From Bdellovibrionales bacterium (GTDB lineage: Bacteria; Bdellovibrionota; Bdellovibrionia; Bdellovibrionales; UBA1609): a DNA stretch of 64,000 nucleotides. Position 1 is the first letter of the stretch. Every line of letters starts with the position of its first letter. The notes below the pieces were generated by a model that saw only the letters and a list, made by a program, of their open reading frames with translations, searched no databases and had not been told where the DNA came from. Where the stretch lies: positions 31,303-95,302 of the forward strand of contig JAHDFM010000006.1 of NCBI GenBank assembly GCA_020628165.1. Reading direction: 5' to 3'. Below are positions 2,343 to 58,255 of this stretch, one piece after another. The position numbers and the translations under genes are program-made.

Positions 2343-4361
2343 TCAATCGAGCATGGCTAAAAATTGCTCGATTGATAAGACTTTGACGCCGAGATCCTCG
2401 GCTTTTTTTAATTTTGAGCCAGCAGCTTCTCCTGCAATTAAATAATCTGTATTTTTACTCACGCTCCCTGGTGAGCTACCACCATTCACTTCAATGGTTT
2501 TTTTCAAATCACTGCGTTTGTAATTATCAAAGCTTCCTGTGATAACAAACTTTAGCCCTTTTAACTTTTTAGAGGCATTAGTGACATCACTCTTTGCGAT
2601 CTTAACACCATTTTTAAGCAAGTTCTGAACTTCCTTAACGAAGTCTTTATTGCTCAAACTTGAAGTGATGGAGCTTGCTACTTTGGGTCCAATATCATTG
2701 AGAGCCAACAGGTCTTCTTCGGTGGCTTTTAAAAACGATGGCACGTCTTGATAATAATTGGCTAAGGTTTTAGCCGTTTGCTCACCGACAAAACGAATTC
2801 CAAGGGCATAAATAAAACGGCTAAGCTCTGGCTGTCGGCTGGCATCGATGCTTTTAATAATATTGTTGGCCGATTTTTCACCTTGTCGCTCCAAGGGAAG
2901 AATGTCTTCTTTTTTAAGTGTGTATATATCAGAAAAAGTTTTCACTAACCCTTCGGTCCAAAGTTGTTTGGTGATTTGCTCTCCGAGCTTATCAATGTTC
3001 ATGGCTTTTTTACTGACAAAATGTTTAAGGGACTCCTTCACAACAGCGGGGCAAAAAAGGTTTGGGCAACGATAAACAGCTTCGTCTTCATTTTTTTCAG
3101 CCTTGGTTCCACACACGGGGCATTTTTGGGGAAACTCATAAGCAACAGATGACTTTTTTCTTTTCTTTAAGACAACTTCCACAACCTCTGGAATAACATC
3201 ACCAGCTCTTTGCACCACAACGGTGTCGCCGATGCGCACGTCTTTACGAGCAATTTCACTTTCGTTATGAAGAGTGGCGTTGGTGATGGTCACGCCCCCC
3301 ACAAATACAGGTTCCATAATTGCCACAGGCGTGAGTGCGCCAGTTCGACCCACTTGTAACACAATATCTTTAATGACTGTGGTTTCTTGTTTTGGTTTGT
3401 ACTTGGCAGCCGTTGCCCAGCGCGGGCTTCTGGCGACAAAGCCAAGTTCTTGCTGTAGCTGGAAGGAGTTCACTTTCATGACCATGCCGTCGATTTCAAA
3501 CTCGAGTTGATCGCGCACACTTTCGATGAAGTGGTAGTGTGCCACTGCCTCTTCTGCGTTTTTACATTTTTTAATGATTGCAGATTTTTTAATTTTTTTT
3601 GCAATTAAATTTGGGATTTTTAATTGGTTGACGGCCTCTAAGAATTGATAGTGAGAGTCGGCACCGTGACCGTCAATCACTCCTGGGGCGTAGGCGTAAA
3701 AACGCAATGGGCGGGTGGCAGCCACTCGAGAATCGAGTTGTCTTAACGTTCCAGCGGCGGCATTGCGAGGATTGGAAAAGGTTTCAAGCCCTTGACTCAG
3801 TTGCCCCTCATTGAGTGATTCAAAGTCACTTTTGTGTAAGAGCACTTCCCCGCGCAGTTCAAAAACGTCTGGCACGGCCCCGGCATCAATTTTTAATGGA
3901 ATGGTCTTAATAGTTTTGGTGTTCAGTGTGACATCTTCGCCAGTAGTTCCATCCCCGCGAGTGATGGCTTTGGTGAGCAAGCCTTTTTCATAAACTAATT
4001 CAAGAGCTAAACCATCAAGTTTTGGCTCGCAAATGAACTCTACGTCTTCATCTGAATTTAAAAATTTTTTGATGCGCTCATCAAAGGCTAAGATATCATC
4101 TGGAGAGTAACTGTTTTGCAGTGATAGCATAGGTGTGCGATGTTTAACTTTACTGAACTTATCTAAAGGCGTTGAACCGGCGCGCTGACTTGGCGAAGTT
4201 TCGGTAACAAGCTCAGGGTGCTTGGATTCGAGCTCTAAGAGTTCATTGAAAAGTTGGTCGAACTGGTAATCACTGATGGTTGGTTTATCCAGTGAGTGAT
4301 AGTTGTAATTGTGCTGTTCAATTTCTATGGATAATTTTTTATGCTTTTCTTTGTAGTTCAA
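2343..4361 (-). CDS. ligA: NAD-dependent DNA ligase
   Basis: 672 aa. Adenylation motif EPKLDGLA, Zn-finger CPVCG...CPNLFCPA, and a C-terminal BRCT-like GLKFVITGSF. Confidence 0.97.
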   Translation of the reverse strand: MNYKEKHKKLSIEIEQHNYNYHSLDKPTISDYQFDQLFNELLELESKHPELVTETSPSQRAGSTPLDKFSKVKHRTPMLSLQNSYSPDDILAFDERIKKFLNSDEDVEFICEPKLDGLALELVYEKGLLTKAITRGDGTTGEDVTLNTKTIKTIPLKIDAGAVPDVFELRGEVLLHKSDFESLNEGQLSQGLETFSNPRNAAAGTLRQLDSRVAATRPLRFYAYAPGVIDGHGADSHYQFLEAVNQLKIPNLIAKKIKKSAIIKKCKNAEEAVAHYHFIESVRDQLEFEIDGMVMKVNSFQLQQELGFVARSPRWATAAKYKPKQETTVIKDIVLQVGRTGALTPVAIMEPVFVGGVTITNATLHNESEIARKDVRIGDTVVVQRAGDVIPEVVEVVLKKRKKSSVAYEFPQKCPVCGTKAEKNEDEAVYRCPNLFCPAVVKESLKHFVSKKAMNIDKLGEQITKQLWTEGLVKTFSDIYTLKKEDILPLERQGEKSANNIIKSIDASRQPELSRFIYALGIRFVGEQTAKTLANYYQDVPSFLKATEEDLLALNDIGPKVASSITSSLSNKDFVKEVQNLLKNGVKIAKSDVTNASKKLKGLKFVITGSFDNYKRSDLKKTIEVNGGSSPGSVSKNTDYLIAGEAAGSKLKKAEDLGVKVLSIEQFLAMLD

Positions 4362-38173: not shown

Positions 38174-38761
38174 ATGCAGTTGCAAGATGTTTGGAAAAGT
38201 AACTTTGAAGAAGCTAAAGACCTCCTCGTTCAGTGTTTTGAGAGTGAGCCTTTTGTGAAATCACTTGAAGAGCTCACAGCTCTAGGTATCGAGTGTTACA
38301 AAAACCAAGGAAAATTAATGGCTTGTGGTAATGGCGGCAGCCACTGTGATGCCATGCACTTGTGTGAGGAGCTGACGGGCAAGTACCGTAAGGACCGCAA
38401 ACCACTTGGCGCCATCGCTTTGGGTGATGCCAGCCATGTTACTTGTGTGAGCAATGACTATGGATACGAGTATGTATTTTCTAGACAGGTTGAGGCATTG
38501 GGTAAAAAAGAAGATCTTTTTGTTGGTATTTCCACTAGTGGCTATTCACAAAATGTGATTCTAGCAGCCGAAAAAGCTAAAGCACTCGGTATGAAAACGG
38601 TGGCTTTGACTGGAAAATCTGGCGGCACTTTAAAAGATATAGTCGATTTAGCAATCATAGTGCCTTCACAGGTGACCGATAGAATCCAAGAAGTGCACAT
38701 TAAGATCATTCACACACTCATCCAAAGTATCGAACGTCATTTTTTTCCTGAAAATTATTAA
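38174..38761 (+). CDS. gmhA: Phosphoheptose isomerase (SIS domain)
   Basis: CGNGGSHCDAMHLCEELTG, ISTSGYSQNV and DRIQEVHIKIIH closely follow the GmhA pattern. Confidence 0.9.
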   Translation: MQLQDVWKSNFEEAKDLLVQCFESEPFVKSLEELTALGIECYKNQGKLMACGNGGSHCDAMHLCEELTGKYRKDRKPLGAIALGDASHVTCVSNDYGYEYVFSRQVEALGKKEDLFVGISTSGYSQNVILAAEKAKALGMKTVALTGKSGGTLKDIVDLAIIVPSQVTDRIQEVHIKIIHTLIQSIERHFFPENY

Positions 38762-46048: not shown

Positions 46049-47353
46049 CTATGCATCTGGGGCTTTTTCCTCGATGATCTCAAGTTCTTGCCCGAGTCCT
46101 TCTGGTAAATTCTTATGGCTTTTGGCACCGAGTTTTTCAAGACGTCGCGCTTGTGTGAGCACTCGGCTTTCAAGGCGAGTCATGCCGGCGTGGTATTCAT
46201 TTTGTGCTTTGTCTAGAAACTTACCAACATTTGTATAAGCATCTACAAAATCACAGATTCTTTTGTGCAGCTCAGTCCCCGCTTTGGAAATGAGTTTGGC
46301 ATTTTCAGAAAGAACTTGTTCGTTCCATCCGTAGCGAATGACTTTTAACAAGCCAATGAGTGTGGGGGGCGTTGCTATCAGGATCTTTTTATCTAAAGCA
46401 TAATCAATAAGGTCTGCTTGAGTTTCTAAAGCGGCATACAAAAAACTCTCATTAGGTAGAAACATCACTGTAAAGTCAGCAGAGTCTTGCAAATTTTGCG
46501 CATAAGCTTTACTTGAAAGTTGCTTGATGTGGTTTTTCACATGCTGACCGTGACGTAACATTTGAGCTTCTTTATCTTTCTCGTTGTTACTTTCTAAAGA
46601 TTGCAAGAAGGCATCAATGGGTGTTTTTGCATCAACGTAGATGTATTTATTGCCAGGCATCTTTACGCTCATATCAGGGATGTACCGTTTACCATCAGAT
46701 GTTGTCGTTGACTCTTGAAAACTGACATCGGCAAACTCGGACATGCCAGCAAGCTCTATACAGTTTTTTAATTGCACTTCCCCCCAGCGGCCACGCACAT
46801 GGGGTTTTTTGAGGGCATTTTTTAAAGCTGCTGTTTCTTTAGTGAGATTAACGTTGATCTCGTTGATTTTCTTAAGCTCAGACTCTACCAGTGAGTAAGA
46901 CTTTTCGCGGTTAATTTCAAGATGCCTGACTTGGTCTTTGTATTCTTTTAATGTGTCTTTAAGTGGGGAGACGATTTCATTAAAGGATTGGAAGTTTTTT
47001 TCAAGGTGTGATTGGTTTTTAAGGCTTTCTTTTTCAATGGAGTTTCTAGCCATCTGTAAAAAGCTCTCGTTGTTTTGAGTCAGAGCATCGGCTGCAAGAC
47101 CTTTAAAGATGTCTGAAAAACTATCTTTAAGGTTTTGGGCATTTTGTTCTTGGTCACTGATATTTTTTTGTAAGAGCTCGTTTTCTGTTTTTATGCGTAT
47201 GAGTTCATTAATTAATTGTTGGTTTTCTTGATGAAGATGGTTTTTTTGATCTGTTAGGTTCTTAAATTTAAAAAACTTAAGGATGTATAAAATAACAACA
47301 GCCAACAAGGTGAAAATAGTAAAATAAAATAAAAATTGAAAACTGATCTGCAT
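46049..47353 (-). CDS. rmuC: DNA recombination protein RmuC
   Basis: N-terminal TM, long coiled coil, then the RmuC core RGRWGEVQL...PDMSV...YVDAK...FLP. Confidence 0.9.
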   Translation of the reverse strand: MQISFQFLFYFTIFTLLAVVILYILKFFKFKNLTDQKNHLHQENQQLINELIRIKTENELLQKNISDQEQNAQNLKDSFSDIFKGLAADALTQNNESFLQMARNSIEKESLKNQSHLEKNFQSFNEIVSPLKDTLKEYKDQVRHLEINREKSYSLVESELKKINEINVNLTKETAALKNALKKPHVRGRWGEVQLKNCIELAGMSEFADVSFQESTTTSDGKRYIPDMSVKMPGNKYIYVDAKTPIDAFLQSLESNNEKDKEAQMLRHGQHVKNHIKQLSSKAYAQNLQDSADFTVMFLPNESFLYAALETQADLIDYALDKKILIATPPTLIGLLKVIRYGWNEQVLSENAKLISKAGTELHKRICDFVDAYTNVGKFLDKAQNEYHAGMTRLESRVLTQARRLEKLGAKSHKNLPEGLGQELEIIEEKAPDA

Positions 47354-47449
47354 AGGTAAAAAGTTCTAGCACTAAAAAAAACTTTTTCAAAAGAAAAAAA
47401 CAAAAACTCGACCTGTAAGTCATTAATATTTTTTAAGAAATTTTTAAAA

Positions 47450-47502
47450 TGTGGATAAAATTGTGACTAACTTGTGATTAAAATGTGAGTAACTGTGGAG
47501 AA
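47450..47502 (+). promoter_or_regulatory. Array of five direct DnaA-box-like 9-mers
   Basis: TGTGGATAA (perfect complement of TTATCCACA), TGTGACTAA, TGTGATTAA, TGTGAGTAA, TGTGGAGAA. They start at 47450, 47462, 47473, 47484 and 47494. Confidence 0.6.
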
Positions 47503-47742
47503 AAAAAGTCTTATTTAACCAATGAATATGGAACTGAATTTTTTGTAAATTGTTGTTAAGAGTCAAATCGATCTAAAAATTTGTTTACGTGAATTTAATA
47601 ATTATAAATCAAATACTTTTTAAAATGAACTAGTTATAAATGCTTCTATTATTCAGATGTTTTACATAAATGGAAAAATTATAACTTTAAGACTTTTGAT
47701 GTCTTAAATATACCAACCTCATCGATTATTTTGAGACTTTCA

Positions 47743-48132
47743 TTAACGACACTTAAATTTAACTTCTGTGGAATAAGGGTCACCCAAGTACTTATCGGCG
47801 GCTTTATTAATTTTGCCAGCCTCAGGAGCATCTCCTAGGAAAACGGAGGCCGCTTCTTTGATTTTTCTCGATTGTTTGTAGATCTCTTCGTCGATGTCGC
47901 CTTGATACTTTTTACCTTCACTTGTTATTTTTGGAACCTTATCAAATTGCTTGCAGTAGCTTGTGGCTTGAGCGATGGCGTCTCTAACACCTTCTTCCTG
48001 GGATTTTGACTTAATAATAACAGAATGTTCGCCTCCAAAACCTCCGGGCCTGACATCCCTATGGTGCGCGCACGACGATAAAGTGAAAGCTGTTACCAAA
48101 AATAAAGATAGGTTAAAAAGCAGTTTCTGCAC
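47743..48132 (-). CDS. Hypothetical lipoprotein
   Basis: Lipobox LSSC. 129 aa. Confidence 0.65.
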   Translation of the reverse strand: MQKLLFNLSLFLVTAFTLSSCAHHRDVRPGGFGGEHSVIIKSKSQEEGVRDAIAQATSYCKQFDKVPKITSEGKKYQGDIDEEIYKQSRKIKEAASVFLGDAPEAGKINKAADKYLGDPYSTEVKFKCR

Positions 48133-49445: not shown

Positions 49446-49631
49446 TTATTGGCTAGCCAACAAGGCACCAAGCAAATGAAACAGTTCACCTATAGAGTAT
49501 TTGTGTTGGTTCAGAACATAAATGTTCTGGCTGTCATTTACGGTGTTTTCAGGCACGTCTTCTGCTGCTTGTGCTCCAGCTAATAAAGTATGCAGTAAAA
49601 AGAAGGTGAGTAATAAAATACGGACTGTCAT
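49446..49631 (-). CDS. Small secreted protein (61 aa)
   Basis: Internal ATG gives the signal peptide MTVRILLLTFFLLHTLLAGAQA. Tightly coupled to the downstream gene. Confidence 0.45.
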   Translation of the reverse strand: MTVRILLLTFFLLHTLLAGAQAAEDVPENTVNDSQNIYVLNQHKYSIGELFHLLGALLASQ

Positions 49632-49961
49632 ATCAGATGACTTTTGCAATAACGAGGCCGCCGTAGTCGCAATAAAATACGAGCTTATATACAGTTTACA
49701 CAGAGTTATGCACATTCTAGTCGGTTATAATATTTAACCTTATTGATAGTCTCAGCTTTGATAGCTAAGTGTCTAAATTTCAATAGCTATTTTCGATAAG
49801 ATGTTTTTTGTAAACGACATGCACACTTTATGAAAAATCTATAGGGCCGATTAAAATTATCTTTATTGGATTTGAGAGCATGTAAATAATTGTAGTGCGA
49901 ATTTTTTGGGAAGTAGTTGTCTGCAAAGGAAGGAAGTAAATAAATATTATTTATGCACAGC

Positions 49962-50933: not shown

Positions 50934-51236
50934 ATGGCTAATGCAGAGCTAAACGTGCGCCCTCTCCACGACAGAATTCTTGTAAAAAGAATGACAGAAG
51001 AGGAAAAAACAGCTGGTGGTATCATTATCCCAGATTCAGCTAAGGAAAAACCACAACGAGGAAAAGTTGTTGCTACTGGTAAAGGCCGAGTGACTGAAGA
51101 TGGTAAGGTTTTACCTCTTGAAGTGAAGTCAGGTGACTCTATTCTTTTCGGCAAGTACTCAGGCACAGAGCTTAAGCTTGAAGGCGAAGAGTTTTTAATG
51201 ATGCGCGAAGAAGATGTTTTAGGTGTTTTAAATTAA
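50934..51236 (+). CDS. groES: Co-chaperonin GroES
   Basis: 100 aa with [11 protein letters not shown]...[13 protein letters not shown]. Confidence 0.97.
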
Positions 51237-51240
51237 TTAA

Positions 51241-52905
<1,665 letters not shown>

Positions 52906-57871: not shown

Positions 57872-58255
57872 ATGGCGATTAAACTGATTATTGCTGATGA
57901 CGCACCATTTATACTGCAAGTGACACGCTCTCTTTTAGAAGGTGAGTCCGTTGATATTGTTGCTGAAGCCAGTGATGGTGATGAGGTGGTGAAGTTAGCG
58001 CTCGAGCACAAGCCAGATGCCATATTTATGGACATGGTTATGCCGAATAAGAACGGCGTGGATGCCACTCGCGAAATTCTCTTGCAATTGCCAGAAACCA
58101 AGATCATAGCTTTTTCCACTCTTGATGAAGATTTGATGAAAGACAAGGCACTCGCCGCAGGGTGTGTGGCTTACATTACTAAGCCCTTTAATCGCAACGA
58201 TTTAGTGAATAGCCTTAAAGAAGCCTTCGCCGATTCGCCAGAGGCACAGTTATGA
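57872..58255 (+). CDS. Single-domain CheY-like response regulator
   Basis: ADDAP, DMVMPNKNG, FSTLD, TKPF: the full receiver residue set. Confidence 0.9.
   Translation: MAIKLIIADDAPFILQVTRSLLEGESVDIVAEASDGDEVVKLALEHKPDAIFMDMVMPNKNGVDATREILLQLPETKIIAFSTLDEDLMKDKALAAGCVAYITKPFNRNDLVNSLKEAFADSPEAQL

Follow-up and report, generated by a model that had tools for sequence, protein, structure and literature searches.

A candidate DnaA-box array with origin-like geometry upstream of rmuC in Bdellovibrionales

Organization of the region upstream of rmuC

The DNA considered here is a 64,000-nt stretch of a Bdellovibrionales genome (assembly GCA_020628165.1, contig JAHDFM010000006.1, positions 31,303 to 95,302; referred to as the window, and the source of all coordinates unless a locus is named), in which five DnaA-type 9-mers are arranged head to tail upstream of the rmuC gene. 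The array probably serves to regulate the rmuC promoter from upstream, as an element that would sense ATP-bound DnaA. The elements that define the locus, beginning at the gene and moving upstream, are the following.

46049-47353, minus strand: rmuC coding sequence, 434 aa, matching Pfam RmuC (4e-86) and NCBIfam RmuC
47363-47405, minus strand: conserved sigma70-type rmuC promoter, with a T-tract, a -35 element TTGAAA (47385-47390), a 16-nt spacer and an extended -10 element TGCTAGAAC (47363-47371)
47391-47449, minus strand: spacer from box 1 to the -35 element, 59 nt, conserved in length and only ~57% identical in sequence
47416-47428, minus strand: conserved spacer block TATTAATGACTTA, with an A-tract ahead of it and its centre at about -66; AATTAATTACTTA in relatives
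47450-47458, minus strand: box 1 (promoter-proximal), a perfect DnaA box TTATCCACA of the high-affinity type; TGTGGATAA on the plus strand
47462-47470, minus strand: box 2, TTAGTCACA; TGTGACTAA on the plus strand; 3-bp spacer to box 1 (aat on the plus strand)
47473-47481, minus strand: box 3, TTAATCACA; TGTGATTAA on the plus strand; 2-bp spacer (ct on the plus strand)
47484-47492, minus strand: box 4, TTACTCACA; TGTGAGTAA on the plus strand; 2-bp spacer (aa on the plus strand)
47494-47502, minus strand: box 5 (distal), TTCTCCACA; TGTGGAGAA on the plus strand; 1-bp spacer (c on the plus strand)

Read in the direction of rmuC, the array has the sequence TTCTCCACA g TTACTCACA tt TTAATCACA ag TTAGTCACA att TTATCCACA and is located 97-149 nt 5' of the rmuC ATG, with the perfect box 1 as the member nearest to the gene and as the only exact copy of TTATCCACA in the window. 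When compared with the consensus TTATNCACA, boxes 2-4 deviate at position 4 only and box 5 at position 3 only. All five boxes share one orientation, and on the plus strand their starts are 12, 11, 11 and 10 bp apart. The original prediction, made from the DNA letters by themselves, had described exactly such a series, with a first 9-mer that is the exact complement of the DnaA box and four others with one mismatch each, and both statements agree with the sequence. The 11-bp units containing box 2 and box 3, TTAATCACAAG and TTAGTCACAAT, are identical at 9 of 11 positions and, since the relatives described below have four boxes, an 11-bp unit was probably duplicated in tandem in the window lineage.

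The array stands out by its clustering and not by enrichment of the motif. The window contains 14 copies of TGTGNNTAA, with 12.8 expected, and four of them fall within the array, inside 43 bp on one strand; matches to TTATCCACA with at most one mismatch number 19 against 18 expected. Upon comparison of periodic CACA units (CACA-N6-8, 10-12 bp apart) with 300 dinucleotide-preserving shuffles, a four-unit array was obtained in none of them (0/300), and the array in the window has five units. Over a total of 227 kb, comprising the window and the fetched rmuC loci, periodic arrays are found only upstream of rmuC, apart from one three-unit chance match inside a coding region. An artefact of composition, which the original prediction had expected to reveal itself as many equally dense clusters elsewhere, is hence rejected. 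The resemblance of boxes 2 and 3 to a recent 11-bp tandem duplication would also suit a short tandem repeat that has no function, or a cluster formed by chance; such an explanation of the array is exceedingly improbable given its absence from the shuffles and its conservation among lineages whose RmuC proteins are 65-71% identical, a distance at which neutral intergenic DNA can no longer be aligned.

Elsewhere in the window, two TTATGCACA boxes, both exact matches to TTATNCACA, are located on the plus strand at 49694-49714 and 49951-49959, with counts at chance level. The first of them has GTTTACACA ahead of it with a 3-bp spacer and is positioned upstream of a small open reading frame (~49446-49633, minus strand) with a signal-peptide-like start.

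Conservation of the array and its linkage to rmuC

Loci with rmuC were fetched from genome and metagenome collections, supplemented by an exact-protein look-up, and the array was found in seven distinct sequences, namely the window and loci L001, L002, L003, L011, L024 and L025, with L011 being identical to L012 and L023 over ~260-300 nt of the upstream region. The closest RmuC relatives all come from Bdellovibrionales metagenome-assembled genomes. The carriers fall into three deep lineages, the first represented by the window (RmuC 65-68% identical to all others), the second by L002 (68-71%) and the third by the group of L001, L003, L011, L024 and L025 (80-94% identical mutually).

In the relatives, the array runs in the order TTAT(G/A)AACA (TTATACACA in L002), 1 bp, (C/A)AAC(T/C)CACA, 2 bp, TTA(C/G)(T/G)CACA, 3 bp and finally the strong box. 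The latter, which corresponds to box 1, is TTATCCACA in L001, L003, L011, L024 and L025 and TTTTCCACA in L002, and it is always the one nearest to the gene. The counterpart of box 2, TTA(C/G)(T/G)CACA, keeps an unchanged 3-bp spacer to the strong box in all relatives, (C/A)AAC(T/C)CACA takes the place of box 4, and TTAT(G/A)AACA or TTATACACA that of box 5, again with a 1-bp spacer. In most relatives the distal box has retained TTAT and has CACA changed to AACA. Because TTAT is kept where CACA has decayed, the alignment shows the unit under selection to be a DnaA-type 9-mer, extending beyond CACA alone.

The gene that lies upstream of the array varies in identity and strand. It is divergent in L001 and L011, whereas in L002 it is co-directional and stops 16 nt short of the array; in L024 it is a small open reading frame, likewise co-directional, and in the window it encodes a 129-aa protein. 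Thus, the array is linked to rmuC and moves with it while the neighbours change. A differently built arrangement is present in L005 (~2840-2875) and L006 (~3770-3805), where a perfect TGTGGATAA is positioned ~90 nt 5' of rmuC in the orientation opposite to that of the window array and is followed 22 bp downstream by a second TGTGG, a configuration that is conserved in both of these higher-GC genomes and absent from their relatives L030-L032. Since a perfect 9-mer is expected on both strands only ~0.0015 times per 200-bp region, this second instance, possibly an independent gain, argues that the DnaA box as such matters at rmuC.

The same alignments bear on whether the array could be the site of another direct-repeat-binding factor, such as a winged-helix regulator of the OmpR/PhoB/ArcA type, with the likeness to DnaA boxes being coincidental. 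Any factor that contacts one face of the helix would suit the direct-repeat period of 10-12 bp, the conserved A-N-N-CACA core and the constant promoter distance; the starts at 12, 11, 11 and 10 bp agree with the repeats at 10-11 bp of response-regulator operators, and boxes 2-4 fit a DnaA box poorly at position 4. An unrelated factor would not be expected to yield a proximal unit that is an exact TTATCCACA in six of the seven sequences together with a distal unit that has lost CACA and kept TTAT. It further speaks against such a factor that the spacers of 1, 2, 2 and 3 bp mirror those of an E. coli oriC array and that a second lineage (L005/L006) has a perfect box in the other orientation. Also, no DNA-binding response regulator is encoded near rmuC in the window, the only receiver protein (57872-58255) consisting of a receiver domain only and being encoded 10 kb away; this is weak evidence, as linkage of a regulator gene to its target is not obligatory. 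Taken together, recognition by such a factor is unlikely, and it is a more serious alternative to the favoured reading than those discussed further below.

The rmuC promoter and the spacer

The array is accompanied in all carriers by a conserved promoter, as TTGnnn-N16-TG(C/T)TA(C/G)AAC is present in all seven aligned sequences. The distance from box 1 to the -35 element is 59, 59, 59, 59, 58, 57 and 58 nt across these seven. With the predicted start site placed 7 nt after the -10 element, the centres of boxes 1-5 are at about -98, -110, -121, -132 and -142.

The -10 element ends 9 nt before the ATG in the window and 6 nt before it in the relatives, and this short distance predicts an rmuC mRNA with no leader or almost none. 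A -10-like hexamer exactly 6 nt before the rmuC ATG is found in two separate Bdellovibrionales clades (loci L001-L003, L011, L024, L025, L004-L006 and L030-L032), and in the clade other than that of the array the promoter has the form TTGCAA-N17-TAnGnT-N6-ATG. No Shine-Dalgarno sequence was found just upstream of rmuC, either at 47351-47371 in the window or at the same loci of these relatives, and a GGGGAG Shine-Dalgarno sequence is present instead in L034, a metagenome-assembled genome of Bdellovibrio sp. From this pattern, leaderless translation of rmuC appears to extend across much of the order.

Within the spacer, the block TATTAATGACTTA has one mismatch to the core WATCAANNNNTTR of the integration host factor (IHF) site; it is kept in six of the seven spacers, and the AATTAATTACTTA of the relatives has the same mismatch. 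Judged by this likeness, 47416-47428 may be a DNA-bending site. A riboswitch or other structured RNA leader in the stretch from the array to the ATG was considered and rejected, since no Rfam match was obtained at E<=1 and the fold z-scores in five orthologues were 0.02, 1.61, -1.03, 0.78 and 0.24, revealing no conserved RNA fold in the spacer. In L002 only, a canonical hairpin CTAGCCG-N7-CGGCTAG followed by the T-run TTTTATTTTTTTT is located at 3930-3965, downstream of the array and ahead of the rmuC promoter. The co-directional upstream gene apparently ends its transcription at this terminator, so that its transcripts would cross the array.

Several other types of control were also examined and discarded. 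For LexA, neither a TTACN3GTAA-like site in 47354-47742 nor, upon inspection by eye, CTGT-N8-ACAG was found. The TGTGA units are direct and not inverted, which does not fit a CRP-like site, and the conserved block lacks TGGCAC-N5-TTGC of a sigma54 promoter with an upstream enhancer. A promoter-like site upstream of the array, at 47566-47538, is not conserved in relatives.

Flanking DNA and position within the replichore

Beyond the array, two further features complete the intergenic region and its boundary.

47503-47742, no strand assigned: A+T-rich non-coding stretch (78% A+T) from the array to the stop codon of the next gene
47743-48132, minus strand: next gene upstream of the array, encoding a 129-aa protein, co-directional with rmuC

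No family match for the 129-aa protein was found in Pfam or NCBIfam. The A+T content of 47503-47742 is in the top 0.3% of 240-nt segments, and the stretch contains no long open reading frame and no Rfam match; it is unconserved in relatives and probably lies outside the regulatory element. A 37-nt direct repeat within it (47584-47620 and 47661-47697; 76% identical, 77 bp apart) was not seen in relatives. On the other side, the tract 47421-47449 next to box 1 has 27 A/T among its 29 nt. The composition of both regions is as the original prediction had stated. Since 20 separate tracts of equal richness exist in the window, 47421-47449 is ordinary intergenic DNA, and its composition is not conserved, the corresponding DNA in L002 and L003 being ordinary and not AT-rich.

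These data bear directly on whether the array is a replication origin, chromosomal or of an integrated element, with the AT tract beside box 1 as the DNA unwinding element (DUE). A cluster of five DnaA boxes is indeed present at 47450-47502, and the order of AT-rich DNA, a strong TGTGGATAA and weak boxes in the same orientation has the polarity of the DUE-R1-R5M side of E. coli oriC. The GC skew, on the other hand, averages +0.073 left of the array and +0.077 right of it and is positive in almost every 2-kb segment, and the cumulative skew climbs steadily over all 64 kb with no minimum at the array. When L001 and L002 are oriented with rmuC forward, their skew, like that of the window in this orientation, is negative to either side of the array and does not change sign. 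Because the skew keeps its sign across the array in all three genomes, rmuC is inside one replichore in the window, L001 and L002. The 64-kb window contains neither dnaA nor dnaN, nor any rep, par or integrase gene, in line with the doubt that had already been voiced about a chromosomal oriC on account of the missing dnaA and dnaN, and the neighbours are housekeeping genes (ligA, gatA, gatB, ppx, rho, prfA, prmC, a gene of the EPSP-synthase family, serS, gmhA, groES, groEL, nadE and four tRNAs). In B. bacteriovorus, oriC was mapped experimentally to the dnaA-dnaN region, and this origin (BdoriC) is also bound by DnaA proteins of other species (PMC5124646). Furthermore, no run of DnaA-trios (NAN triplets) adjoins either end of the array, the sole run being the homopolymeric promoter tract 43-62 bp away. 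With the AT tract being one of 20 and unconserved, the proposed equivalence with the E. coli DUE next to R1 finds no support, and neither, on the combined evidence, does the suggestion of an origin-like locus; an origin at this site can be almost entirely discounted. Iterons or a mobile element were similarly rejected, as rep, par and integrase genes are lacking nearby and the units measure 11 bp and not 17-22 bp.

Some other observations concern the neighbourhood at large. In the window, groES-groEL (50934-52905) is ~3.5 kb from rmuC, with three extra unannotated open reading frames between, and in many Bdellovibrionales (L026-L032) rmuC is divergent from a small open reading frame that is followed by groES-groEL. 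No controlling inverted repeat of chaperone expression (CIRCE) with <=3 mismatches was found in the whole window. A protein with a SIS domain (38174-38761) was considered as the DnaA-associating protein DiaA and set aside, since by the NCBIfam cut-offs it qualifies as GmhA (sedoheptulose-7-phosphate isomerase) and not as DiaA.

A proposed DnaA-responsive element and alternatives to it

In the arrangement that we favour, the perfect box 1, centred at about -98, would hold DnaA most of the time, and the weak boxes 2-5 would be filled cooperatively only when ATP-DnaA is abundant, generating a head-to-tail oligomer from -94 to -146, in the way that the low-affinity arrays of E. coli oriC are filled starting at R4 or R1. 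The fixed distance of 57-59 nt to the -35 element, and perhaps a protein-induced bend at the IHF-like block at about -66, would phase this oligomer relative to RNA polymerase, and the phased oligomer would alter polymerase recruitment or promoter opening. Transcription of rmuC, which encodes a recombination-control nuclease, would thereby follow the replication status of the cell. Activation is slightly favoured over repression, because no box overlaps the core promoter and because a replication-linked nuclease would be wanted while replication is under way. In the work of Slupska et al. 2000, RmuC is reportedly described as a nuclease that may act on replication-linked inverted-repeat structures.

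Several lines of evidence are in accord with this proposal. DnaA of this order is expected to read canonical boxes, since footprinting with B. bacteriovorus DnaA yielded the consensus NN(A/T)TCCACA (PMC5124646). DnaA is an established transcription factor, and the repair genes uvrB and recN are co-regulated by it together with LexA (PMC8203912), while rmuC itself is on the list of LexA-regulated genes of E. coli (PMC11228462). As in DnaA-regulated promoters, a perfect box is found near the promoter, 59 nt 5' of a conserved -35/-10 pair, and both the boxes and their position at 57-59 nt are conserved in seven sequences from three deep lineages. Of the readings listed in the original prediction, a DnaA-controlled rmuC promoter is therefore the part that gained ground, as the array moves with rmuC and keeps its distance to a conserved promoter, and the analogy with an origin and its DUE is the part that was lost.

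Other findings weigh against the proposal. T at position 4 is among the conserved DnaA contact positions (PMC5124646), and because boxes 2-4 lack it, DnaA would bind to them no more than weakly. With ~60 bp between the end of the array and the -35 element, simple occlusion is excluded, and a bend or a long-range contact is therefore needed. The IHF-like block, which might provide such a bend, is absent in L002, and its matches occur in the window at chance frequency (149 observed against 150 expected); for this reason any weight given to the block derives from its conservation alone. Finally, no array was found upstream of the more distant Bdellovibrionales rmuC genes with 50-60% identity (L004, L007, L013, L014, L026-L032 and L034), and because these lack it, the link between array and rmuC is clade-specific.

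DnaA might also bind to the array mainly for the control of DnaA itself, in the manner of a datA/DARS-like reservoir or a modulator of its nucleotide state. Five clustered boxes that adjoin a candidate IHF-like site resemble such loci, the cluster being evident and the IHF-like block having the one mismatch, the presence in six of seven sequences and the chance-level motif frequency described above. A precedent is offered by B. subtilis, where DnaA-box clusters outside oriC affect the timing of initiation (PMC3245932). A free-standing titration site would need neither a fixed distance to the rmuC promoter nor movement with rmuC, and five sites make a small reservoir of DnaA. All boxes of the array are head to tail, unlike the DARS core, in which boxes I and II are oppositely oriented. 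A principal role of this kind thus seems improbable, and it is not mutually exclusive with control of the promoter. A bolder version of the DnaA-responsive element, for which we see only a slim chance, would treat the module as a transplanted origin half, in which a strong box is joined by weak boxes of graded strength, a site of bending and a conserved T-rich tract containing the promoter. In such a module, an ATP-DnaA oligomer returned by the bend would assist in melting the AT-rich promoter or holding it open, so that the mechanism of origin unwinding would serve to fire a promoter, or the module would double as a datA/DARS-type controller of the DnaA cycle in this clade.

If DnaA binds to the array, rmuC would be a DnaA target in this Bdellovibrionales clade, and the regulatory input of a recombination gene would have shifted from the sensing of damage, as implied by its place on the LexA/SOS list in E. 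coli, to the sensing of replication. The array would also represent a compact natural copy, outside the origin, of the oriC geometry of one strong box with a series of weak ones, and hence a test piece for the effects of spacing and strength on cooperative loading of ATP-DnaA. Of minor further interest is the prediction that rmuC mRNA is leaderless across the order. The array does not overturn current views, and its interest is moderate.

Comparison with known systems

Operators of OmpR, PhoB and ArcA share with the array direct repeats ~11 bp apart upstream of a promoter, sometimes in 3-5 units. They differ in that the unit in the window equals a DnaA box, with a strength that is graded along the array, and in that no cognate regulator gene is nearby.

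In E. coli, datA and DARS2 consist of DnaA boxes that work with IHF, and the core of the DnaA-reactivating sequences (DARS) contains the oppositely oriented boxes I and II. The array resembles datA, DARS1 and DARS2 as a DnaA-box cluster outside oriC with a candidate IHF-like block adjoining it, and it differs from them in being fixed to a promoter and in the orientation and spacing of its boxes, which are unlike those of the DARS core and datA.

Promoters regulated by DnaA include those of dnaA, nrdAB, uvrB, recN and polA in E. coli, of sda together with DnaA-box clusters in B. subtilis, and of gcrA and ftsZ in Caulobacter. The array has in common with them DnaA boxes near the promoter of a gene linked to replication or repair, and promoters are known to be controlled through weak boxes whose occupancy depends on ATP-DnaA (PMC8203912). 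It differs by being an ordered, origin-type array located wholly upstream (-94 to -146), as compared to one or two boxes over the core promoter, and neither rmuC nor Bdellovibrionales is among the DnaA targets that we found described in the literature.

The closest structural parallel is the right half of E. coli oriC, which in the RefSeq genome reads TTGTTCTTT gg ATAACTACC gg TTGATCCAA gc TTCCTGACA gag TTATCCACA, with starts 11, 11, 11 and 12 bp apart. We take its site names and boundaries, C3-2-C2-2-I3-2-C1-3-R4, to be those of Rozgaja et al. 2011. Both arrays have one perfect TTATCCACA at one end and four weaker 9-mers of the same orientation 5' of it. The spacers are 2, 2, 2 and 3 bp in E. 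coli and 1, 2, 2 and 3 bp in the window, with the 3-bp spacer next to the strong box in both, and in the direction of rmuC the start distances in the window are 10, 11, 11 and 12 bp. This same polarity and these near-equal spacers bear out the likeness, proposed at the outset, to arrays of low-affinity oriC sites nucleated by a strong box. In each gap of E. coli oriC, four low-affinity sites 2 bp apart are filled cooperatively by DnaA-ATP from a flanking strong box (PMC6727663). The array in the window is distinguished from oriC by weak boxes that are much closer to the consensus than the E. coli C and I sites and by its tie to a promoter, and it has no skew switch, mirror-image second array, R2-type central box or DUE. 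Conserved and seemingly functional, it is on these comparisons best classed as a putative regulatory array of DnaA boxes that would have rmuC as a new target gene, in an order that has received little study and with a geometry that is unusually origin-like.

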